A DNA stretch of 64,000 nt. It comes from a virus (taxonomy: Duplodnaviria > Heunggongvirae > Uroviricota > Caudoviricetes). Both the position numbers and the translations under genes were made by a program. Where the stretch lies: positions 23,342 through 87,341 of the IMG/VR virus record IMGVR_UViG_2529293038_000017, one strand, 5' to 3'. The notes under the pieces are model-generated. The model saw nothing but the letters and a program-made list of their open reading frames with translations. It had not been told where the DNA came from and searched no databases. Below are positions 4,428 to 20,994 of this stretch, piece by piece (position 1 is the stretch's first letter; each line of letters opens with the position of its first letter).

Positions 4428-4453
4428 TAAGACTAAAACGTTGGTTTGGGAGA
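4428..4453. other. cix-like crossover site (left boundary of invertible segment)
   Basis: TAAGACTAAAACGTTGGTTTGGGAGAA; right half is reverse complement of left half of the site at 6010..6035; hix/gix-like AAACC-NN-GGTTT core. Confidence 0.5.
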
Positions 4454-4943
4454 AGGCTCTGCATTACCTGTTGGTGTCCCTGTTCCGTGGCCTTCAGCCA
4501 CTCCGCCAACAGGCTGGCTGAAATGCAACGGTGCGGCTTTTTCTGCTGAAGAATACCCGGAACTGGCAAAGGCTTACCCGACAAATAAATTGCCTGATTT
4601 ACGTGGTGAGTTCATTCGTGGCTGGGATGACGGGCGCGGGATTGATCCAGGTCGCTCTATTTTAAGCGAGCAAGGATATGCAACGGAGGATCATGCTCAC
4701 GGATTACCGTCAAAATCAACCGTAGCAACTGACAGCTCAATTAATTTCTACTTTGACGAGGCATGGGCTACTAGTGGTAATACGGGAGTTATCAGATGGG
4801 GGAACACAAGCGATGCAGGATTGCCAGCCCCTAATTATGGAACTTTTAAAACATATAAACAGTCCGTAGCTAATTTAGGTACTGCTGGCTTAGAAACCCG
4901 CCCTCGTAATATTGCATTTAATTATATTGTGAGGGCGGATTAA
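4446..4943 (+). CDS. silent alternative tail-fibre C-terminal cassette (Sv'-like); expressed only after inversion fuses it to the S constant part
   Basis: N-terminal ~65 aa (GEGSALPVGVPVPWPSATPPTGWLKCNGAAFS...DLRGEFIRGWDDGRG) and C-terminal ETRPRNIAFNYIVRA are shared with the S C-terminus on the opposite strand; middle differs. Confidence 0.6.
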   Translation: MGEGSALPVGVPVPWPSATPPTGWLKCNGAAFSAEEYPELAKAYPTNKLPDLRGEFIRGWDDGRGIDPGRSILSEQGYATEDHAHGLPSKSTVATDSSINFYFDEAWATSGNTGVIRWGNTSDAGLPAPNYGTFKTYKQSVANLGTAGLETRPRNIAFNYIVRAD

Positions 4944-4948
4944 TTATA

Positions 4949-5560
4949 TCAACTGGCTGTAGAAAGTTGTTTTTCAGGCCAGTTGAGATCTGGTGCCGTG
5001 GTTAAATCCATCGCGTTCAGCTCGTCTATATAATCTAGCACGGAGTTAAGCTGCGTGGTTTCTGCCTGCGTCAACTTCCGTCCAGCCCGTAATTTCAACT
5101 GAATCAGACTAATGGAATCCATCGCAGTATCAATCAATGACTGACGTTTTGTTTCTGCTGCCTCTACAGCTGCACTATGTTGAGCCTCAGTATCAACCAC
5201 CCATTTCTCTCCATCCCATTTGTCGTATGGTGTTAGCGGGGCGATAGTGGTTGTATTTTCCGGATAGTCACCCAACACCGTGATTTCTTCGGGATTCCCT
5301 GTGTCAATGCTATAGACAGTTTCGCCACGATGATCTGGCACATACTCCCATGAACTTAAATCCTCTGAACGGAGAATCGCATAACCTGCTTTATGTGAGC
5401 CTGGAGCATCCAAACAAGAATGTGCCGGAATACCAACGCCAACAGCAAGATATTCAGTTGATGCAGAAATATATTCCCGATTACCACCATCATAGTTATA
5501 AACGATAATGTTTCCTGCCTGTATGGCTATAAGTTCGCTATTTAATATCGCATTATCCAT
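4949..5560 (-). CDS. tail fibre assembly chaperone (U/Tfa-like)
   Basis: 203 aa; start overlaps S stop (TAATG); Tfa-type C-terminus (VLDYIDELNAMD); lies inside the invertible segment. Confidence 0.75.
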   Translation of the reverse strand: MDNAILNSELIAIQAGNIIVYNYDGGNREYISASTEYLAVGVGIPAHSCLDAPGSHKAGYAILRSEDLSSWEYVPDHRGETVYSIDTGNPEEITVLGDYPENTTTIAPLTPYDKWDGEKWVVDTEAQHSAAVEAAETKRQSLIDTAMDSISLIQLKLRAGRKLTQAETTQLNSVLDYIDELNAMDLTTAPDLNWPEKQLSTAS

Positions 5561-7239
5561 TATGCTGCTCTCACAATATAATTGAAGGCAATGTTACGTG
5601 GGCGGGTTTCATTCCCCCCAGATAACTCCGTTCTGTATTGACTGGTAAATTTACCATTAATCGCTCCTTCTTGGACGGCGTTATCTGTCGACAACAGGCT
5701 ATCCCCCCCTCTGTCATTTGGCACCAATACCGTGTTATCCCACGCGTCCCATGACCGAATATTATGATAATGACTTCCTGTTAACCACCCCTGTATGCTT
5801 AAGATGACCCTTCCCGCATCCACACCTCGCCCATCATCCCAACCACGGATAAACTCACCGCGTAAATCAGGTAATTTTAACGTTGGGTAAACCTTTGCCA
5901 GATTTGGGTACTTTTCAGAAGAAAATGCTGCTCCGTTACATTTCAGCCACCCCGTTGGTGGTGTGGCTGAGGGCCATGGAACAGGTACACCAACGGGCAG
6001 CGCCGAGCCTTCCCCTAAACCAAGGTAATTAAGAACGCTCTGAATACTGGGCTTACTAAGAATTGCACGTCCAACACTTGTCAGTGCAGTTAACGCGGCA
6101 CGATCAACCCCTGTGAAATAAGGGAGTTTATCTGCTGCGGTAGCTAGTGCCGCTAGAGCAGTGAGCGTAGCGTCTGCCGCTTGCTTTCCATTAGCCAAAT
6201 CATATGCAGCCTTGACAGCTTTCGGTGTAGCGGCCAGCACTTCAGACGTGCTGTTAGTGGCACTACTGAGCTGAGTGATGCCTTTCGCTGTCAATGAAGC
6301 TGTTGGCACACCAGTAATCTGATTCCAGGGATGTGTATGACTGGATGGTGCCTTTCCGGCTGCTAGATCGTATGCAGCTTTAACCGCTTTTGGCGTTGCA
6401 GCTAATGTTTCAGAAGTGCTGTTGGTGTCGCTACTGAGCTGAACTATCCCTTTTTGTGTCGTGGTTGCATCCTGGGCTGTATACTTCCCGTTAGCCAGGT
6501 CATATGCAGCCTTGACAGCTTTCGGTGTGGCGGCCAGCACTTCAGACGTGCTGTTAGTGGCACTACTGAGCTGAACTAATCCCTTTTGCGTTGTGCTTGC
6601 ATCCTGCGCCGTATACTTGCTTTTCGCCAGATCGTAGGCTTTTTTAACTGCCAGCGAACTCGCAGCAACATCACTTCTGGTACTGGTTACAGAGTCTGAA
6701 ATATCAATGCCGATCGTGCGGTTGATACGCTCGGATGTATCAATCATCTCTTGAGTAATGGTAGATACGCCAGCAGGGATATTCACCGTACAAACCAGCA
6801 GTTCCCCATCACCTAACTGATATGAATCGGTATAGGTTCTGGCAACAAATTCAGCTGCATGAATATGTGACGCGGTATTCACCTGATAGGTATCTTCTCC
6901 AAGAAGGTATCTTCCCTTCAGCACAATTGCATATTTCTTGCCTGCGTTAAGTGCAAGAGAGATATCCTTACGATGCTGAATAGTTACCTGGTAGAATTCA
7001 CCAATATCCACTGACGCCGCGCCAGCGGTTTTATCTCCATCCACTGAGGTGATTAACAGGTTCATCCCACCGCCAGGCTTAGGCAAGAAACCAGCATAAA
7101 ATCCCGGGTCAACAATTCCCCTGAATTTTCGGTTTAGAGCGGCTGACAGATATGGTTCGTGGTATTGCACATCAGCCACCAGAGCCAACGACTCGGGTGA
7201 TGGGTAAGTAACCGATGTAACAACTGTAACGTCATTCAT
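5560..7239 (-). CDS. tail fibre protein S (constant part plus currently expressed variable part)
   Basis: Repeated fibre motifs (KAVKAAYDLA..KYTAQDA.TTQKG.VQLSS.TNSTSE, 3-4 copies), C-terminal NETRPRNIAFNYIVRA; start set to ATG 7239 (AAGGA upstream, just after R stop) rather than 7326. Confidence 0.8.
   Translation of the reverse strand: MNDVTVVTSVTYPSPESLALVADVQYHEPYLSAALNRKFRGIVDPGFYAGFLPKPGGGMNLLITSVDGDKTAGAASVDIGEFYQVTIQHRKDISLALNAGKKYAIVLKGRYLLGEDTYQVNTASHIHAAEFVARTYTDSYQLGDGELLVCTVNIPAGVSTITQEMIDTSERINRTIGIDISDSVTSTRSDVAASSLAVKKAYDLAKSKYTAQDASTTQKGLVQLSSATNSTSEVLAATPKAVKAAYDLANGKYTAQDATTTQKGIVQLSSDTNSTSETLAATPKAVKAAYDLAAGKAPSSHTHPWNQITGVPTASLTAKGITQLSSATNSTSEVLAATPKAVKAAYDLANGKQAADATLTALAALATAADKLPYFTGVDRAALTALTSVGRAILSKPSIQSVLNYLGLGEGSALPVGVPVPWPSATPPTGWLKCNGAAFSSEKYPNLAKVYPTLKLPDLRGEFIRGWDDGRGVDAGRVILSIQGWLTGSHYHNIRSWDAWDNTVLVPNDRGGDSLLSTDNAVQEGAINGKFTSQYRTELSGGNETRPRNIAFNYIVRAA
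6010..6035. other. cix-like crossover site (right boundary, inside S)
   Basis: TTCCCCTAAACCAAGGTAATTAAGAA; inverted relative to 4428..4453; ~200 bp of ~80% identical inverted sequence flank both sites inward. Confidence 0.5.
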
Positions 7240-7763: not shown

Positions 7764-8603
7764 TCACGCATCGCTATCCAACAGCAAATCATCTGCGCGG
7801 GTGCGATCAAACGTAGGCGTTGCTTTCACAATAGTGCCGCCCGGCGTTGCAGTGATCGGGGCGTTAATCGACGTAACTTCAGTAAGCGAAGTTGTATCCG
7901 AAGTTTCAAACCAGCAGAATGCTTTTTCGGTATCAGAAATCTCATTCAAAGTGATCATGTCGGCCTGTTCATTTACAACAACCGACAAATAGAGCGTAAG
8001 CCCATCAAACACTATATGCAGTGGCAGTAGAGGCTTTACGAACTGATTAAACTTTCTGAGAATTTCTTCTGTAATTGCGGACTGATCTATCGTTCCAGTA
8101 ATACCCATTGTCCGGGCCAGGTCGTTTATGGGAATACTGATCATTCCTCTGGAAGTCAGAAACATCTCGCCGAATGTGCCGCCGGTGGTTTCCAGTGTGC
8201 TTTCTGGAATCAGGACCGTGCCATAGGGATGACGTTCAAAGTCCACCGGAGCATATATTGGATCCCATAAAACCGATATACCGTTAAATTCGCGATAAAT
8301 TGTCTGGTTTATAGGGCGTTCAGTACCCTTAAAATGGATCTCATCAAACCGCTGTTGTAACAACATCGGAACGGAAGATGAATTCGACGTTCTGATAGTA
8401 AAAAACTGGCCAAGTTCATTTGTCCTAGTCTCCAGATCCTCCTTGCTCATGGAGAAAATAGACTTCCGGTTGGTAATTCGCTCCAACCATGGGTCAACAA
8501 AGGTGTCCATCATTGACTGAACCAAATCAGCCAATGATTTATAAAGTAATGACTTTTGCTTAGCTGATGTAAGCCGGTTATTAAACCAGGAACGCTGCAT
8601 CAC
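7764..8603 (-). CDS. baseplate/tail structural protein (279 aa)
   Basis: ORF in tail operon; ATGA overlap with upstream gene. Confidence 0.45.
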   Translation of the reverse strand: MMQRSWFNNRLTSAKQKSLLYKSLADLVQSMMDTFVDPWLERITNRKSIFSMSKEDLETRTNELGQFFTIRTSNSSSVPMLLQQRFDEIHFKGTERPINQTIYREFNGISVLWDPIYAPVDFERHPYGTVLIPESTLETTGGTFGEMFLTSRGMISIPINDLARTMGITGTIDQSAITEEILRKFNQFVKPLLPLHIVFDGLTLYLSVVVNEQADMITLNEISDTEKAFCWFETSDTTSLTEVTSINAPITATPGGTIVKATPTFDRTRADDLLLDSDA

Positions 8604-10033
8604 TCCTCCTCATACGAAATATTAAAGGTGGAGTTTTCTGTATCCAGATAAACGAAATCGTAAAAGCCGTTGGACTCATTCCACTCGACAAATTCCAGAT
8701 AAAAGTCGCGGAAATAACCCAGCGTTTCGATAAATGCCCAAACGTCTTTTTTCTTGATTAGGATGTACTTGCCGACACGGTTCGGATCAAAGAAAGTTGA
8801 GTCACGCCCAAATTTTGTTTCCAGTGCCGACTTCAGCTCATCAGTCACGTTCTCAATGGTCAGGCTTGCCGATATCCGCCCAGTGATAGTGATCTTAAAG
8901 GGGAGTTTTCTGACCTCTTTATACGAGAATTTCTTGTTCAACTCATTCGGCACCTTCTTAAAGGCAGCCAGGATCACTTCTTCAAGCTCTGACTGGCTTT
9001 TGTTTGGATGCCATCCTGAAATAAATATCTTATTGATATTCCGAACATTATAAGCACCATCTAATTTCTCTTGCTGGCCTTCGCCCCATGCCTTTACCCA
9101 GGACAGTCCCGGGATGTTACGCACCAAAAAATACGTATAGTCCCCGCCCCATACGACCTGATCATCATAGGCAAGGTAATATTGTGCACGATTACGTGTG
9201 ATCTCCGTTGTTTCGGCATCGGTACCTGCGGTTATGGGTGTCGTTGTCTTAACTGAAATCAAATTAGCTAAATTAGCCGCAGAATCGACAGGCGTCAGGT
9301 TTTGGCCAGCAACCAGGGTTATATCTCCGTTGGTGCACCATACCTTAAGTGTAATGGTCGAGCCTTCTGGCGGTATTTGCCCAATTAGCCCATCACCGAA
9401 TCGAACCCCCAACTGCTCGGATGGCTTATAAAACTCAACGTAGACCTGGCTTTTACTACCGGCTAACCGGAACATAGTGCTGGAAGACCACTGCGTGGTC
9501 TTACCATCGGTCGTCACGAATACTTCCAGCTTATAGCAGACAGCAGTGAGAGCCTTTGATAACACGACTTCCAGAAATTCTTTGGCTGCCGTAACGGTAT
9601 ATGTCACCTCCTGGATTTCCAACTGTGCCACTTCTACCGTACCGGTGCCGTCAACCAACCTGCATACATCCATAGTCATGTAAGGGTACTGGTCGTCAGA
9701 TATTAAAGGCATATTTTTGGGGATTACCGCTGGGGCATCTTCACTTGTGGCGGTGATCTCAATCATCCCCGATGACGGTGTTGGCTTGGTACCAACGTAA
9801 CTATTCGTTTCTGCCGCTGCCAGGATAGAGGAACGCCGCGTCGCGGTCGATATAAAGCCTTCAGCCAGCGCCGCATCGGCATACTGAAAGCACCTGTAGA
9901 CAATCTGGGTAATAAACAATGTCAGCATCGAGACAAATTGAGAGCCGACAAACTTCGACCAGAATGAATCTTTCTCGACAAGCTCTTCAAACTCTGCACG
10001 AATACTGTCTTTAGTCGGTGTTGTTTTACTCAT
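8600..10033 (-). CDS. baseplate wedge protein (J/gp6-like, 477 aa)
   Basis: Size and position between gp25-like gene and fibre genes; overlapping start/stop. Confidence 0.45.
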   Translation of the reverse strand: MSKTTPTKDSIRAEFEELVEKDSFWSKFVGSQFVSMLTLFITQIVYRCFQYADAALAEGFISTATRRSSILAAAETNSYVGTKPTPSSGMIEITATSEDAPAVIPKNMPLISDDQYPYMTMDVCRLVDGTGTVEVAQLEIQEVTYTVTAAKEFLEVVLSKALTAVCYKLEVFVTTDGKTTQWSSSTMFRLAGSKSQVYVEFYKPSEQLGVRFGDGLIGQIPPEGSTITLKVWCTNGDITLVAGQNLTPVDSAANLANLISVKTTTPITAGTDAETTEITRNRAQYYLAYDDQVVWGGDYTYFLVRNIPGLSWVKAWGEGQQEKLDGAYNVRNINKIFISGWHPNKSQSELEEVILAAFKKVPNELNKKFSYKEVRKLPFKITITGRISASLTIENVTDELKSALETKFGRDSTFFDPNRVGKYILIKKKDVWAFIETLGYFRDFYLEFVEWNESNGFYDFVYLDTENSTFNISYEEE

Positions 10034-10389
10034 AGCACCACGTCCTGTGTGATAGTTATATCCCTGATACGAATGGATATTTTCAACTTATCAAAAGCAT
10101 CTCCCTCGGCTACTGACAAGCCAGAAATCGGTATGTCAGGTAAATCTACCGTCAGTTTTTGCAACAGCATTGCCTCAACCGCAATTTGAACATGCGACAA
10201 GTTGGTCGGTTCGTGTTTAAACTGCGGTAAAACATTGCCCCATGACGGATCTCCGTATACCTCACCCTGATAAGTGTTTAGCCACTCATATAAACGAGCG
10301 CCCCAGGCCTCCTCCTGGGACTCATACGTTTTTACGCCGGATAACTCCAGCGTCAGCAAAGGATCAATTTCGTTATTGTTGGCCATCAA
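10030..10389 (-). CDS. small baseplate protein (GPW/gp25-like, 119 aa)
   Basis: Size and position directly downstream of sit; overlapping stop/start. Confidence 0.4.
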   Translation of the reverse strand: MMANNNEIDPLLTLELSGVKTYESQEEAWGARLYEWLNTYQGEVYGDPSWGNVLPQFKHEPTNLSHVQIAVEAMLLQKLTVDLPDIPISGLSVAEGDAFDKLKISIRIRDITITQDVVL

Positions 10390-13376
10390 TCAACTCTCGC
10401 GTAGTCATTCATCAACGGATCATCAATTGACAGTGGTACCGTGCGCATAACGCCCGGCTGAGGCGTGCTGACCTTTACGACAGTTCCCTGGCCTTTCGCC
10501 GAGTCTTTGGTGTGCTCTTCAATCCTGGCAAGCAATGAGGTCATCTGCGCAAACAGCCGCTTCGTTTCACCATCAAGTGAAACGGTATTATCAGCCAACT
10601 GCATTGTCGGCTTGGCACCGGAACCGCCAAGGTCACTAATAACCTGCCCGTCTATCTGCATACGACCGGTTGGTTGCTGCAAATCGTTGGCGGCAGTCGT
10701 CACCTGGGACGTGGAGGCTGGTTCAGGCGCATTATTTTTCCGCATCCCCGGCGAGTTGCGGAGTTTATCGAATAGTCCATCAATCCCCATTTGTGCGCCG
10801 AGATGGTCAAAGTAACTTGAGTTGTTGGCCACCGGACGCGCCTCTTCAACTGGCATCGGAGTATCAACATACACATTGCCAGCTGCTGTTGCGGTCCCCT
10901 TCTCTCGTGCACGTTCTTCTAGCGTTCCCTGAACGACTTCCCGACGCATCCCCCGGCCATTCATGAATTTGTTGACCAGATCGTTAACGCCAACAGCATT
11001 GCCGATTTTGTCGACCAGACCGCCTTTCTCAAACGGGCTATCACCAGGGGTAAACGCCAGGCCAGTATACTGATCGATAACAGCGTTATCAGGCAGTGGT
11101 CCCCTCACTCCATATTGCGCCCCACCCTGTGCTCCTGCTCCAGGTGTATAGATTTCACCACCTAAATAGCGAGCACGATGAGTATTGACCTTGATCGCGT
11201 ACTCACGGTTTTCTTTCGATAAGTCACCGGTGCCTTTTTTCCACTTATTAATAGTGCCAAACCCAGCATTATATGCAGTGATGGCCTCGTTTAAGTCTCC
11301 ATTGGCTTGCTTAAGATACTTGCTCATGAGAAGAGCCGCAGCTTCTGCCGATTTCACAGGATCAAACGATTCACCTTCAGCTAAGCCAGTCTCTTCACGA
11401 GCAATCCCCGTGAACTGAAACATCCCCAGAGCACCGGTTTGGGATTTTGCATACGGATTACCACCAGATTCAGTTGCAGCAATCGCGTAAAGAGTGCCTT
11501 CTGGAAGACCGTATTTATTCTCTAGTTCGGCAAAATACGGAGCCAACTTATCGAGATTTGCCTTACCTTCAGCGCCAAGACTTCCGACTTTTACATCTAA
11601 GTTGCCATTGTTGTAAGTATCCGCAGCTTTCTGAATGTCATTCCTGGTGCCAGTGGTATTAAGCGACGATGATGACGAGCTATTTTGACCAATAGCTTTA
11701 TCAATTTTCTGCAACGCGCTATTGCCCGTTTCTACGGCATTTGCATTGATAATCTGATTGGCAGTTTGTTTAACTGTTTTATTGCTATCTTTCGCTGTGT
11801 CCAGTGCCGCATTTATCACGCGGGTAGCAATATTACTCTGTTTGGCATCGGATTCAGTTTTAGAATCAGACGTCTCCTGGTGGCTATTAACCGGAGCTTT
11901 TAACTCCGGAGTGATTTCTTTCGCATTAGCCTCGCCGATCGGATTGGGTATTTTTGATACAATCATTGCCGCAGGGGTATTTTTAACGGCATCAACCGCT
12001 GCATCTAATGCTTTACCAGGTAAATTTTTAACCCCATCCCAAATATTACCAGCCGCCTCTTTAATGTGTTTCCCTGGGTTCTTAATGAAATCAATTGCAC
12101 TATCAATTGCATCACTGAAAACCTGTTTCAGGTTATCAACAGTAAAGAAGTCTTTGATGGCATCCAGCTTTTCAAGCAGCTTATTAGATGTATCGCTAAA
12201 CCATGCTGAAACAGCATCACCAATCTTTGCTGTGTAATCTTCGAACTTGGTAGAAATGGTGTCGCCAAGGTTAGAAATATATGTTTCTAAGTTGGTAATC
12301 CCACTATCAATGGCCTGGGCAATACTTTCCGTCGAAAATGATTGCAACATATTGCCGATATCCTCAAATCCAAGTGATTTGAGAACCTCACCAATGGCGC
12401 TGCTAATACCAGATACCAGTCCCCCCATATCAAGAACATTGGCTAACGTATAAGCGGCTTTTTGCTGGAATGATGGCTCTTGTCCTGATTTAAGCCCAAA
12501 CGCTCGACGTTGCGCTTCTGTATCATTCCAACCGGTTACCGCATCATAAATACCTCCAGCCACTGTGCCGACTAAGGGAATTGCGCGTAACGCCCCTTTA
12601 CCAACTGCCTTTAATCCAAATTTACCTGCTGCCCGGGCAGCCAAATCTCCACCTTCATGGGCGATAGTCTTCTTGCCACCACCGCGTAGCATTCCTACAA
12701 GTTTCTTTGCCCCCAGAGCGCCAAAAGCGAGTGCTCCAGCTTTTTTCAGCATGCCACGCCCCATTAACAACGACGCGACGCCACCGGCCCCCTTCCCTAA
12801 CAGGCTAAATAGTTTGGACAGCAAGCCGCCCTTCTTTTTCCCGGTGTTTTTGGCTATCTGATCAAGGGCGCTGAGAATCTTGTCATTGCCCTCTTTAATT
12901 TCGCTGGTCTGCTCCTGAAGTTCCTGAACCGTCCGTTTTTGGGTGTTAACCTGAACGACATCGGCACTATTTTGCGATTTACGCCTAAAAAAACCTTTTC
13001 TACGGCTGTTATCGTCATTGCCACGAATCACATCGGCAATAGACTTTCTGGCGCCATTAAGCGATCCACCAACTTCTTTTGATATCCCGCCAAGCTCCTT
13101 CCCTGCTGCCCACAATGGACCAGCAACGGCATAACCTAACGCATCGACGGCACGAGTCTCTGAAGGGTTACCTATGCCTTCAGCTACTTTTGACAGTTTT
13201 TTTAATAAACCTGATTCAGCATTTAGACGCTCATCATCCTCTTTGCGCCTGGCCTTTTCAGCACGTTCAGCACGGGCATCTTCCGCTGCGGCCTTACTCC
13301 CTGACTTTCCAATAAAACGACCACGCGCATCGCGTTGGTTTTGGCTTTTTTGCGCACCGCCTTTTTGATCGAACAT
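10386..13376 (-). CDS. sit: Sit-like tape-measure/injection protein with lytic transglycosylase domain
   Basis: 996-aa ORF; SLT motifs (ATESGGNPYAKSQTGALGMFQF, AYNAGFG); Gly/Lys-rich N-region; no RBS before ATG 13376 and frame open upstream to the A6 run at 13445..13450. Confidence 0.8.
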   Translation of the reverse strand: MFDQKGGAQKSQNQRDARGRFIGKSGSKAAAEDARAERAEKARRKEDDERLNAESGLLKKLSKVAEGIGNPSETRAVDALGYAVAGPLWAAGKELGGISKEVGGSLNGARKSIADVIRGNDDNSRRKGFFRRKSQNSADVVQVNTQKRTVQELQEQTSEIKEGNDKILSALDQIAKNTGKKKGGLLSKLFSLLGKGAGGVASLLMGRGMLKKAGALAFGALGAKKLVGMLRGGGKKTIAHEGGDLAARAAGKFGLKAVGKGALRAIPLVGTVAGGIYDAVTGWNDTEAQRRAFGLKSGQEPSFQQKAAYTLANVLDMGGLVSGISSAIGEVLKSLGFEDIGNMLQSFSTESIAQAIDSGITNLETYISNLGDTISTKFEDYTAKIGDAVSAWFSDTSNKLLEKLDAIKDFFTVDNLKQVFSDAIDSAIDFIKNPGKHIKEAAGNIWDGVKNLPGKALDAAVDAVKNTPAAMIVSKIPNPIGEANAKEITPELKAPVNSHQETSDSKTESDAKQSNIATRVINAALDTAKDSNKTVKQTANQIINANAVETGNSALQKIDKAIGQNSSSSSSLNTTGTRNDIQKAADTYNNGNLDVKVGSLGAEGKANLDKLAPYFAELENKYGLPEGTLYAIAATESGGNPYAKSQTGALGMFQFTGIAREETGLAEGESFDPVKSAEAAALLMSKYLKQANGDLNEAITAYNAGFGTINKWKKGTGDLSKENREYAIKVNTHRARYLGGEIYTPGAGAQGGAQYGVRGPLPDNAVIDQYTGLAFTPGDSPFEKGGLVDKIGNAVGVNDLVNKFMNGRGMRREVVQGTLEERAREKGTATAAGNVYVDTPMPVEEARPVANNSSYFDHLGAQMGIDGLFDKLRNSPGMRKNNAPEPASTSQVTTAANDLQQPTGRMQIDGQVISDLGGSGAKPTMQLADNTVSLDGETKRLFAQMTSLLARIEEHTKDSAKGQGTVVKVSTPQPGVMRTVPLSIDDPLMNDYARVD

Positions 13377-13414
13377 TTCGCGAGCGTGTTCGGCTGCTTC
13401 GGTCCGTTGTGCCT

Positions 13415-14074
13415 TTATATCCTCTGATATAGCCTTCCTGCGTCTTTTTTACCCTTTGGTGTAGTTGATTTGGCCTGCTGTTCCTGTTGAGCAATGCCCT
13501 CCTGAACTACACGAGAAACGTCCCCTAAATTAAGCCGTTTCATTGCGTCAACAATAGGGTCTACTGATGGCGCATTGGCCACAAAGTCTGGCCGGGAATT
13601 TTCGATTGTTCGATTTAATGCCGACACACTGCGAGATACTGGGTCAACCGTTGCAACGCGTTCCCCTTTCAAATCACGAGCGAGTTTGACCGTTTCTAAC
13701 CGCTGTGCTTTAACATCCTCTGTTATTGCCTCTCTTCGTCTATTTGGGGGATTGTGCGCTGTTGGTGCAGCCTGCTGTTCACGGTTAGTGACTTTGTCCT
13801 CCCGTATACGAGAAACGTCCCCTAAATTAAGCCGTTTCATTGCGTCAACAATAGAGTCCACTGATGGCACATTGGTCACAAAGTCAGGACGTGAATTTTC
13901 GATTGTGCGATTTAATGCCGACACACTGCGAGAGACAGGATCAACAGTTGCAACTCGTTCCCCTTTCAAATCTTCAACAGCTTCCCGAATACCTGCAAGC
14001 TCTTCCAGCTCTTTCGCGCTGGCGGTTTCAACTGTCCTTATAACATCGTCAATATTGGCGTTTTTTCTTTCCAT
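13415..14074 (-). CDS. 219-codon frame in -1 register with sit; likely N-terminal segment of the Sit protein (frameshifted) or separate gene
   Basis: Ends 38 nt before sit ATG; contains two near-identical ~185-bp repeats (period ~297 bp); A6 run at the exact point where the sit frame opens. Confidence 0.55.
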   Translation of the reverse strand: MERKNANIDDVIRTVETASAKELEELAGIREAVEDLKGERVATVDPVSRSVSALNRTIENSRPDFVTNVPSVDSIVDAMKRLNLGDVSRIREDKVTNREQQAAPTAHNPPNRRREAITEDVKAQRLETVKLARDLKGERVATVDPVSRSVSALNRTIENSRPDFVANAPSVDPIVDAMKRLNLGDVSRVVQEGIAQQEQQAKSTTPKGKKDAGRLYQRI

Positions 14075-14155
14075 GATCTTATCGCCTACCGTTTCGGTTT
14101 AAGTTTTTCTTCCAGTTTCTCCAACAGGAAAAACGCATAGGATTCAGTAAGCCTT

Positions 14156-15037
14156 TCAGCGTCCTGAATCGGTATACCCCCATACAAAACCAGGTTGGAC
14201 ACTAAGGTCTGATAGCTTTTCAATCCCCACCTGTGGAATGAAGTCGGTAGCCCGAAAGGGCACCCACAGACGGGTATACGCACCCTCTGTGGACTCCTTT
14301 GTATCCTGGTTTGGGCATTTGTGCGGCGGGAGACGAAGACGCATTTCGCCTTTATCGATGTAGCACGGTAAACCATGTTCGAGCTTTTCATTAGCCAGCC
14401 GGATGTGTGCCGCCAGCTTCATAAATTCAGTATCAATGGCCATCCGTTTGATCGTTTCATAACGACGCTCAGCCTGCTCTTCACGAGTACCGCTAACATC
14501 GTTATAAAGTTCACACTGATAAGCGAATTCCCAAAAACGCAAATCAACGATCGCTTCTTTGAATTCCGCGTCGTCTTCAGGTGGCAATGCTGCTCGGCGC
14601 ATCTCCAGCATTTCCATTGCCCAACCATCAAGCGGCACGATACGCCATTGATAAGGCACGCCCTCTACAGACACCTCAATATCGTCAATGAACGGTTCCA
14701 CTTCCAGGACCTGGATATCTTCAGCCAGAGCATTCATATCGCAATCGTAATAATGCTCTTTACCGCAATGTTTACAGGTGTAGGTAAATGTCTCGATCGG
14801 TGTTTCGCGGGAGCCAGTAAATATCCACCATAACGCGGTAATCCGGTCCTGTGCCGTCCATTTCAGTGGATCATGTTTCGCAGCTTCAGCCAGCAAGGCT
14901 TTTAAATACGCTGTTGTCTGCTGTTCTTGTTCCTCCGGTGTTATCGAGTTGAAACGCATCGCATCAGCAATATTTGGCTGACGGAACTGGATTAATTCAG
15001 TTGGCCGCGATGGTAGCGGGAAAAGGGGTAAAAGCAT
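14156..15037 (-). CDS. Cys-rich protein of tail-gene operon (293 aa)
   Basis: Strong RBS AAGGAG; CKHCGKEH and other Cys/His clusters. Confidence 0.6.
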   Translation of the reverse strand: MLLPLFPLPSRPTELIQFRQPNIADAMRFNSITPEEQEQQTTAYLKALLAEAAKHDPLKWTAQDRITALWWIFTGSRETPIETFTYTCKHCGKEHYYDCDMNALAEDIQVLEVEPFIDDIEVSVEGVPYQWRIVPLDGWAMEMLEMRRAALPPEDDAEFKEAIVDLRFWEFAYQCELYNDVSGTREEQAERRYETIKRMAIDTEFMKLAAHIRLANEKLEHGLPCYIDKGEMRLRLPPHKCPNQDTKESTEGAYTRLWVPFRATDFIPQVGIEKLSDLSVQPGFVWGYTDSGR

Positions 15038-15051
15038 CCTTGCTCCTTAAT

Positions 15052-15663
15052 TTAAAGAGAAAAACTAAAGCCCAGAAGGGAAGCCAAAGAACTTGAGGAT
15101 TGGTTAAACGTGCTGTGCAATGCGAAGGTCATTGGGAATGACTTAAATTCCGTGACCTGATCCCGCGCATAGGTGACATCGCCGGTAGTAACCGGGAATA
15201 CCGTCATCTCATTTTCCAGTTTGGTTAAACCGGAAGACAGCAACCGATAAATACGCACATTGAGCAAATATTTAGACGGTATATTCCCAGTACCGTCCGG
15301 ATTGATCACCCGACTTTTTGCCGTCTTAAACCAGTCCAAAACGAGGCCATCAACGGTATCCCTGACCATCATTGTTATCTGCCCAGGCGAACGCTCCGTT
15401 GGTTGAAGGATATTCCCTCCGCCGATTTTAATCGTTTCATATTCGATGCTGTAATCGTGGTAGGTAATATCTTTGGCAAAGAAGTCTGCCCCCTCCAGTC
15501 CATCAACTTCGACAGAGAACTGCCATCCTTGCGCGAACAACATTTTGTTCATGATGATTGACGTCAGCTTACCAACTTCCCGCTCACCAACGCCGGAGCC
15601 AAATAATGTCGTCGTTAATGCCGAAGATACATAAGACTTTACTGAAGCAACATTAAGCCCCAT
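15052..15663 (-). CDS. tail tube-like structural protein (203 aa)
   Basis: RBS GAGGGAG 8 nt upstream; beta-rich composition, size typical of myovirus tube proteins. Confidence 0.4.
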   Translation of the reverse strand: MGLNVASVKSYVSSALTTTLFGSGVGEREVGKLTSIIMNKMLFAQGWQFSVEVDGLEGADFFAKDITYHDYSIEYETIKIGGGNILQPTERSPGQITMMVRDTVDGLVLDWFKTAKSRVINPDGTGNIPSKYLLNVRIYRLLSSGLTKLENEMTVFPVTTGDVTYARDQVTEFKSFPMTFALHSTFNQSSSSLASLLGFSFSL

Positions 15664-16775: not shown

Positions 16776-16826
16776 TAATTTATCTCCTTTGGATATTAAT
16801 ATTTTAATTAGTTAACCACCATATAT

Positions 16827-17474: not shown

Positions 17475-17569
17475 TATAACCTCACCTGCCTTATAACTCA
17501 TTTAGGGTACATATTTTCGCCTTTAAAAAAAGAGGTTATTAGATCCAATTGTGTATTTATTAAGCATAT

Positions 17570-20149: not shown

Positions 20150-20728
20150 ATGCTGGCTAAAGTCACTTTCCTGAGCTGTATAACGATGAGCGATTTTACT
20201 TTTTCTGGCTATGAATTGGCCTGCTTTGTAACACACTCCGGTCTATCCCGTAGCGCCGGGCATATCCTGTCGCAATGTGCAAATCTCGCGGCAACAACCA
20301 GTGAATACTTCATTCACAAGCCTCACCGCCTGATCGCGGCAGAAACTGGTTATAGCCAATCAACCGTCGTTCGTGCATTCCGTGAAGCTGTAAACAAAGG
20401 AATTCTGTCTGTAGAGATTGTTATCGGCGATCACCGTGAACGTCGCGCTAACCTGTACCGGTTTACACCATCCTTTTTGGCCTTCGCACAACAAGCCAAA
20501 AATGCGCTGATTGAAAGCAAATTAAAGATCTCTTCAGCGGCAACCAAGGTTAAAGCTGTTCTCGCTAAGACATTGGCTTTATTTAATTTTTTATCCACAC
20601 CCCCATGTCAAAATGATACCCCCTCCCCCTGTCAGGATGACGTGGCAATAAAGAATAAGAAGTCACAAGTTAAAAAACAAAAAGATCAGTTTCCGGCGGT
20701 GCCGGAACGACCAGACTCAAAAAATTGA
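20150..20728 (+). CDS. RepL-like lytic replication protein candidate (by position after kilA)
   Basis: 192-aa ORF; start uncertain; no motif confirmation. Confidence 0.35.
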   Translation: MLAKVTFLSCITMSDFTFSGYELACFVTHSGLSRSAGHILSQCANLAATTSEYFIHKPHRLIAAETGYSQSTVVRAFREAVNKGILSVEIVIGDHRERRANLYRFTPSFLAFAQQAKNALIESKLKISSAATKVKAVLAKTLALFNFLSTPPCQNDTPSPCQDDVAIKNKKSQVKKQKDQFPAVPERPDSKN

Positions 20729-20994
20729 CTTCATGGATCGCTGAGGCAAAAGCAAAGGCTGACAATCTGCGGTTATCCAAAAAACGCGCTCAAAAACATG
20801 AGTTCAAGCAGAAAGTAGAGGCGGCAGCGCGGAAATATGCTTACCTGAAGAACAAGCGTTCTCCTGATATTGGCGGGGTATCAAACTTCGATAATCTGCC
20901 GCATTGCATGACGGTAAACGAAGCTCTTAATGCGGTTTTAGCCAAAAATAAAGATAACGAACAATGGGGTATACCGGCAGGATTCAGAGGGTGA
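20725..20994 (+). CDS. hypothetical basic protein (89 aa)
   Basis: ORF with start overlapping upstream stop. Confidence 0.45.
   Translation: MTSWIAEAKAKADNLRLSKKRAQKHEFKQKVEAAARKYAYLKNKRSPDIGGVSNFDNLPHCMTVNEALNAVLAKNKDNEQWGIPAGFRG

Follow-up and report, generated by a model that had tools for sequence, protein, structure and literature searches.

In the classic transducing phage P1, the Sit protein (1140 aa) is taken as the tape measure of the tail because of its length, its helical-predicted N-terminal two-thirds, its SLT domain and the fact that mass spectrometry detects it in virions (PMC9024508). Sit is also listed as the tape measure protein (TMP) in the cryo-EM study of P1, which counts 52 rings in the tail tube and 53 in the sheath and whose maps do not resolve Sit (PMC12810830). 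Our literature search found no description of a repeat polymorphism in sit, and papers on P1 diversity mention the gene only as interrupted or deleted. A change of tape-measure length mediated by repeats is in itself an already known, ordinary kind of variation. For lambda gpH and T4 gp29, in-frame deletions and duplications lead to a proportional change in tail length, and a paper on the Staphylococcus aureus phage SA3821 reportedly concerns tape-measure length variation by repeats.

Here, we describe a pair of tandem 99-codon units in the 5' part of sit in a P1-like element. Our overall reading, to which we give a probability of about 0.85, is that these are in-frame units of sit, that their number varies among relatives by recombination, and that sit in this element is split by the loss of one A. 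On this reading the gene model is corrected, with the repeats being a part of sit and the split being a one-base homopolymer problem. The tape-measure gene of P1 also has a recombination-driven length polymorphism of 99 residues that is common in clinical and veterinary E. coli phage-plasmids.

The Gene Neighborhood of the Repeats

The window, by which we mean the whole stretch of 64,000 nucleotides that was analysed, is on sequence grounds a P1-like phage-plasmid (Punavirus). Around the repeats, a stretch of 901 nt is 99.3% identical to Escherichia phage phi456 and about 94% identical to P1, P7, RCS47, and SJ46, and sit and pmgB are annotated beneath the phage matches of this region. All genes of the repeat region lie on the minus strand and follow each other, in the direction of transcription from high to low coordinates, as tub, pmgB, an ORF of 219 codons, an ORF of 996 codons, pmgA, and bplA. 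These features are as follows.

15052-15663, minus strand: tub (ORF list, Pfam/PHROG, and P1 annotation)
14156-15037, minus strand: pmgB (ORF list, Pfam/PHROG, and P1 annotation)
13415-14074, minus strand: 219-codon ORF, the 5' fragment of sit with both repeat units inside (phrog_2533 positions 1-134, in two stretches)
10386-13376, minus strand: 996-codon ORF, the 3' fragment of sit, with an internal ATG as its start (phrog_2533 positions 135-1130; Pfam PF01464)
10386-14074, minus strand: the whole sit gene (1229 aa with one A restored, the length in p1303_95)
10030-10389, minus strand: pmgA (ORF list, Pfam/PHROG, and P1 annotation)
8600-10033, minus strand: bplA (ORF list, Pfam/PHROG, and P1 annotation)

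The order of the ORFs, their Pfam and PHROG neighbours, and the annotation of P1 all place sit between pmgB/tub on one side and pmgA/bplA on the other, which is the neighbourhood of the Sit family. A scan of positions 13200-14300 for promoters and terminators stayed at chance level, with no promoter-like site and no terminator-like excess. The antisense ORF at 13575-14102 on the plus strand was dismissed, as it is without a family match in PHROG. On the minus strand, an ORF of 101 codons (14086-14391) lies in the +1 frame relative to pmgB, overlapping the pmgB 3' end, and stops shortly before sit begins. Neither Pfam nor PHROG gave a match for it. A frameshift of the G/GT type between pmgB and this ORF was dropped from consideration because the ORF is in the +1 frame and there is no convincing slippery heptamer at the overlap.

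Two further differences from p1303_95, a plasmid of E. coli 1303 that is the nearest relative of the window, were seen away from the repeats. The tail-fibre region (about 4441-6574) aligns to p1303_95 partly inverted and with several short repeated matches, as expected for a cin-invertible C segment in another orientation or arrangement. At window position 16797, 10 nt of p1303_95 (AACGATTATC) are missing inside an AT-rich palindromic intergenic region (16780-16815).

Structure and Coding Constraint of the Repeat Units

A repeat search of the window returned one family with two copies (13464-13675 and 13761-13972), which are 212 nt long, 84% identical, and spaced by 297 nt. A match of such length and identity cannot be chance within a 64-kb window. 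The full repeat unit has 297 nt, or 99 codons, and the units stand in tandem and in frame near the 5' end of sit. Each unit has a core of 165 nt (55 codons) that is followed by a tail of 132 nt (44 codons).

13673-13969, minus strand: repeat unit A, 297 nt (99 codons), LKGERVATVDPVSRSVSALNRTIENSRPDFVTNVPSVDSIVDAMKRLNLGDVSR followed by the tail IREDKVTNREQQAAPTAHNPPNRRREAITEDVKAQRLETVKLARD; absent from P1 and P7
13377-13672, minus strand: repeat unit B, 296 nt here and 297 nt in relatives, with the tail VVQEGIAQQEQQAKSTTPKGKKRRRKAISEDIKAQRTEAAEHARE after frame repair
13805-13969, minus strand: core of unit A, the putative recombination substrate, 151 of 165 nt identical to the core of unit B
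13508-13672, minus strand: core of unit B, 165 nt, conserved

Unit B has only 296 nt in the window because one base is missing. The cores of the two units are 91.5% identical in nucleotides (151/165) and share 51 of 55 amino acids; 14 core codons differ, 10 of them synonymously and four with an amino-acid change. The tails are far more diverged, with 82 of 132 nt (62%) and 19 of 44 amino acids in common, and the tail of unit A (13673-13802) is confined to alleles with at least two units. Tandem Repeats Finder reported nothing for positions 10000-15000 at its default score because two copies with 78% overall identity score too low. Two units are found in about 200 independent complete plasmid sequences and are therefore not an assembly artefact.

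The original prediction described two near-identical direct repeats at 13505-13690 and 13802-13985 with a period of about 297 nt. Repeat search and self-comparison both bear out that the repeats are real and that their coordinates and period are correct. The wording "near-identical" was somewhat generous: the self-alignment that had been proposed as a check gives 86% (158/184, ungapped) over those spans and 91.5% in the 165-nt core. The duplicated module that it described is likewise there, as the translation of 13415-14074 (minus strand) contains LKGERVATVDPVSRSVSALNRTIENSRPDFV...MKRLNLGDVSR twice.

The repeat region varies in the manner of a coding sequence. Variable sites at the first, second, and third codon positions number 2/0/8 in the leader (35 codons), 7/5/20 in the core, and 7/9/12 in the tail, and all length changes in the repeat region are multiples of three. 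This pattern indicates that the 55-codon core is under purifying selection and that the repeat region is coding, with every sign of being translated and constrained.

The Repeats Belong to sit

The profile of the Sit family, phrog_2533 (1130 positions), is matched over its full length by the two ORFs in succession, with positions 1-134 covered by the 219-aa ORF (E=2.5e-96) and positions 135-1130 by the 996-aa ORF (E=0). Alignment with the Sit proteins of P1, phi456, and p1303_95 agrees with this match. As in the family, an SLT lytic transglycosylase domain is present in the C-terminal third (Pfam PF01464, E=7.5e-27, residues 614-723 of the 996-aa ORF, about 11208-11537). The sit gene of P1 (40988-44410, 1140 aa, YP_006507.1) begins with MERKNANIDD like the 219-codon ORF and ends with the 996-codon ORF. 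Sit is a single ORF in P1 (1140 aa), in phi456 and ECO12 (1231 aa each), and in p1303_95 (1229 aa). For the 219-aa ORF, Pfam gave a sub-threshold PP_M1 match alone, and a PDB sequence search gave no match.

We read these matches to mean that the repeats are in sit itself, not in a separate gene. They had first been placed in a frame upstream of sit, which is wrong: phrog_2533 spans both ORFs, and the two are one ORF in P1 and phi456. The wrong assignment came from the one-base frameshift described below. That the 219-codon ORF is a gene of its own upstream of sit, for example for a chaperone or an accessory tail protein, is extremely improbable. It does have its own ATG and stop in the window, and RefSeq starts sit of p1303_95 at an internal ATG (996 aa), with the 5' region being unannotated in many records. 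Against this, the frame of p1303_95 is open across the junction for 1229 codons, one continuous ORF is found in P1, phi456, ECO12, and most IMG/VR loci, the PHROG profile is continuous over both ORFs, and the stop exists solely through a 1-nt loss that is unique to the window.

The annotation of this region deserves mention in its own right. RefSeq annotates sit of p1303_95 from the internal ATG (L007 10087-13077; NZ_CP009168 17656-20646) despite its 1229 open codons, and many two-unit records leave the repeat region without an annotated feature. Protein databases therefore often lack the 5'-terminal 700 nt of sit together with the repeats.

Other changes in Sit were seen outside the repeats. 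The Sit alignment has small in-frame indels at columns 485-492, 701-722, and 887-896, which correspond to about 11400-12600 in the window. In phi456 and ECO12, Sit has an 8-aa insertion, KLATKGLG, in a Gly/Lys-rich segment, and also two 3-aa gaps, while P1 Sit alone has a 10-aa insertion, TLTRSPNGKL, at the start of the SLT domain. In a rearranged P1-like element, the position of sit is occupied by a gene for a protein of 1009 aa (P0013; L008 6001-9030, GCA_042763985.1, DAXLKW010000024.1) that joins a Sit N-terminus to an unrelated C-terminal region. Its Sit part runs from the end of unit A through unit B and about 100 more residues to ...AAGKELGGI, and its C-terminal region has an HELGHH motif and no Pfam match. 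This protein is either the product of a deletion or fusion or an assembly chimera.

A One-Base Frameshift Splits sit in the Window

The two fragments of sit part at a homopolymer run within the tail of unit B.

13445-13450, minus strand: run of six A on the coding strand (T6 on the plus strand); A7 in p1303_95 and A6C in P1 and phi456

The frameshift at this run gives a stop at 13415-13417, and a single uninterrupted reading frame is thereby lost from sit in the window. An alignment of the window with phi456, 673R5, and P1 has one base missing in the window, at GGGTAAAAAA-GACGC. Over 901 nt, A6 in place of A7 is the sole difference between the window and p1303_95. The frame of p1303_95 is open for 1229 codons across the junction, and the Sit of the window has the same 1229 aa with one A restored. 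The apparent separate ORF of 219 codons thus results from the loss of 1 nt from a homopolymer. Among the 86 sequences examined, at least 69 have A6C and 10 have A7, both of which are in frame, one has A5C, and the window alone has A6G. Every record that matched the region in the phage, plasmid, and E. coli collections did so with that gap.

A comparison of the window with p1303_95, to which it is 98% identical along about 50 kb, turned up 11 clean single-base indels. Of these, eight fall in A/T runs of 7-8, and in six of the eight the run is contracted in the window. One such contraction affects a kilA-like gene (annotated as a MarR family regulator), which is one CDS of 846 nt in p1303_95 and is split in the window into ORFs at 20150-20728 and 20725-20994 by a contraction of A7 to A6 at about 20671. 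Further single-base length differences in A/T runs of 7-8 are at 17524, 19162, 27165, 37376, 63117, and 63947, and the run is mostly shorter in the window. These differences suggest systematic homopolymer miscalls in the assembly. The two sequences also differ by about 2% substitutions, and therefore some of the homopolymer differences may be real polymorphism.

We consider a homopolymer sequencing error to be the most likely source of the sit frameshift, and we hold this view with moderate confidence. A rather unlikely but plausible alternative is that the frameshift is genuine and that the element is a tail-defective P1-like plasmid, in which slippage at A7 inactivated sit and left the repeats in what is now a pseudogene fragment. 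Degradation is frequent in P1-like plasmids, some of which have lost sit or have an IS2 inserted in it (PMC6906374). An independent contraction of the same run, from A6C to A5C, is found in a one-unit locus (L071, IMGVR_UViG_2909272501_000006), where it gives a stop at codon 120. Moreover, a synonymous change of CGA to AGA created the A7 and makes the site prone to slippage. On the other side stand the kilA-like gene, which is broken in the same way at 20671, the mostly one-directional nature of the homopolymer differences (shorter in the window), which is a pattern of base-calling error, and the state A6G, which is unique to the window among the sequences examined.

It is also conceivable that the split gene is recoded, either by a -1 ribosomal slip on U-AAA-AAA-G or by transcriptional slippage in the A run, so that some full-length Sit is made with GKKRRRK restored. 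A -1 shift on the second AAA codon reads AGA CGC AGG, which is exactly the sequence of the relatives, and shifting in E. coli is efficient on A-rich heptamers such as A-AAA-AAG. We give this very little credence. The heptamer is imperfect, with a U at its first position; a shift site at this run is not preserved in the relatives, given the in-frame A6C of at least 69 sequences and the in-frame A7 of 10; and the A6G state occurs in one sequence only. The conserved slippery heptamer at the frame junction that marks a programmed frameshift of the dnaX or G/GT type is not found among the relatives.

Unit Number Varies Among P1-Like Elements

Close and otherwise collinear relatives differ in the number of in-frame tandem units. 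P1, P7, RCS47, and SJ46 have one unit, and their matches span 605 bp in place of 901. The region is present in 472 records of complete E. coli genomes, of which 198 have a unit-A tail and nine have two. As the unit-A tail (13673-13802) is present only when there are at least two units, it was used to read the unit number in these records, and one, two, and three units make up about 58, 40, and 2% of the P1-like plasmids in complete E. coli genomes. Both pEC2_5 and pXH989-OQX were confirmed to have three units with a spacing of 297+297; in pEC2_5, the annotation gives sit as an intact CDS of 4023 nt. Versions of 605 bp and of 902 bp are both present in PLSDB, in Escherichia, Salmonella, and Klebsiella, and IMG/VR has 54 one-unit and 18 two-unit loci. 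Full-length Sit has 1100-1142 aa with one unit and 1225-1249 aa with two.

Phage phi456 has an intact Sit with two units, and it produces plaques as well as myovirus particles (PMC10967188). The two-unit allele therefore works.

The original prediction held that recombination between the copies would change protein length by 99 aa and proposed a comparison of copy number in relatives. That comparison yields one, two, or three units, and the chimeric junction units described next agree with the predicted route.

Recombination Between the Units

Units were scored at the 19 sites at which units A and B of the window differ within the first 175 nt. Single-unit alleles have an A-type 5' end and a B-type 3' end. 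The switch from one type to the other falls into at least four intervals, namely 37-64 (L020), 64-79 (the P1 type, which is the commonest), 79-82 (L032), and 116-164 (pCombat11I9-3 and L043). In three-unit alleles the middle unit has the reverse make-up, with a B-type head and an A-type tail, and its switch lies at 102-112 (pEC2_5) or 116-164 (pXH989-OQX). Internal patches with the SNPs of the other unit are found in unit 1 of 673R5, in unit 1 of XH989, and in L031, L046, and L080. Chimeric junction units of this kind are a sign of unequal crossover, and here the switch points number four or more among single units and two among middle units, with conversion tracts besides.

These SNP mosaics are the mark of unequal homologous crossover and gene conversion that have occurred repeatedly between the cores. 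Mosaics with several crossover points and conversion tracts imply that recombination between units changes the length of Sit by 99 residues. In the mechanism that we propose, an unequal crossover between the 165-nt cores would add or remove exactly 99 residues with the frame kept, and gene conversion would keep the cores of two-unit alleles similar.

The tails have a different history. Between P1 and the window, the orthologous B tails are only a few per cent apart, whereas A and B tails are 38% diverged. Because of this 38% divergence of the unit tails, and because the single units are A/B chimeras, the two-unit state appears to be the older one and the P1-type single units appear to have arisen by deletion. 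A phmmer search with unit A against 1.84 billion representative proteins gave three Sit-like matches and no relatives outside the Sit family, and with only these three there is no outgroup to polarise duplication against deletion. A search for homologous proteins gave just 12, most of which are labelled partial.

Possible Consequences for Tail Length

The AlphaFold model of the 219-aa fragment, which was made from a single sequence, is mostly helical with low confidence (pLDDT 53.6). In contractile tails, the rise per ring is about 4 nm. A value of 1.5 Å per helical residue is the tape-measure figure used in the analysis of P1 Sit (PMC9024508). On the strength of these two figures, we infer that 99 residues would add about 15 nm of tail, or roughly four tube and sheath rings per unit, to the 52 tube rings of P1.

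There is a real if somewhat doubtful possibility that the number of units is without effect on tail length. The N-terminal repeats would then lie outside the ruler part of Sit, as a segment that is flexible, processed, or situated at the head-tail junction, and copy number would drift neutrally. Genes with one, with two, and with three units are found otherwise intact, the tail of the unit is poorly conserved (19 of 44 aa; variable sites 7/9/12), the structural model has a low pLDDT, and Sit is not resolved by cryo-EM, all of which would fit such drift. The core, however, is under purifying selection, and in lambda gpH and T4 gp29 the tail follows in-frame deletions and duplications in proportion.

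A bolder and considerably less probable proposal is that P1-like phages fall into natural, discrete tail-length classes, with about four extra rings per 99-residue unit, which are set by a recombination-prone cassette. The alleles would be kept at appreciable frequency since tails of different length suit host envelopes, O-antigens, or capsules of different thickness.

The natural series of one, two, and three units could be used to test whether Sit is the tail ruler of P1, a point that has been debated. Beyond this test series and the corrected gene model, the variation is of the sort expected for tape-measure genes.

Comparison With Known Systems

The Sit of P1 is like that of the window in its gene position (pmgB-sit-pmgA-bplA), in being more than 90% identical outside the repeats, in its SLT domain, and in its leader, MERKNANIDD. 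It differs in having one 99-aa unit, a chimera with an A head and a B tail, where the window has two. It also differs in that the window copy is frameshifted at the A run and in indels of 8 and 10 aa elsewhere. Closer still are phi456 (OR339795) and p1303_95 (NZ_CP009168), which have two-unit alleles and, along the 901 nt, match the window at 99.3% and 99.9% identity. In these two the frame is intact, with A6C or A7 at the run, whereas the window has A6 followed by G.

Among tape measures elsewhere, lambda gpH and T4 gp29 resemble Sit in that the in-frame gain or loss of a unit changes the length of the protein, for which about 1.5 Å of tail per residue is expected. They differ from sit in that its variation is a natural and frequent polymorphism with mapped crossover points and a predicted effect on the tail.
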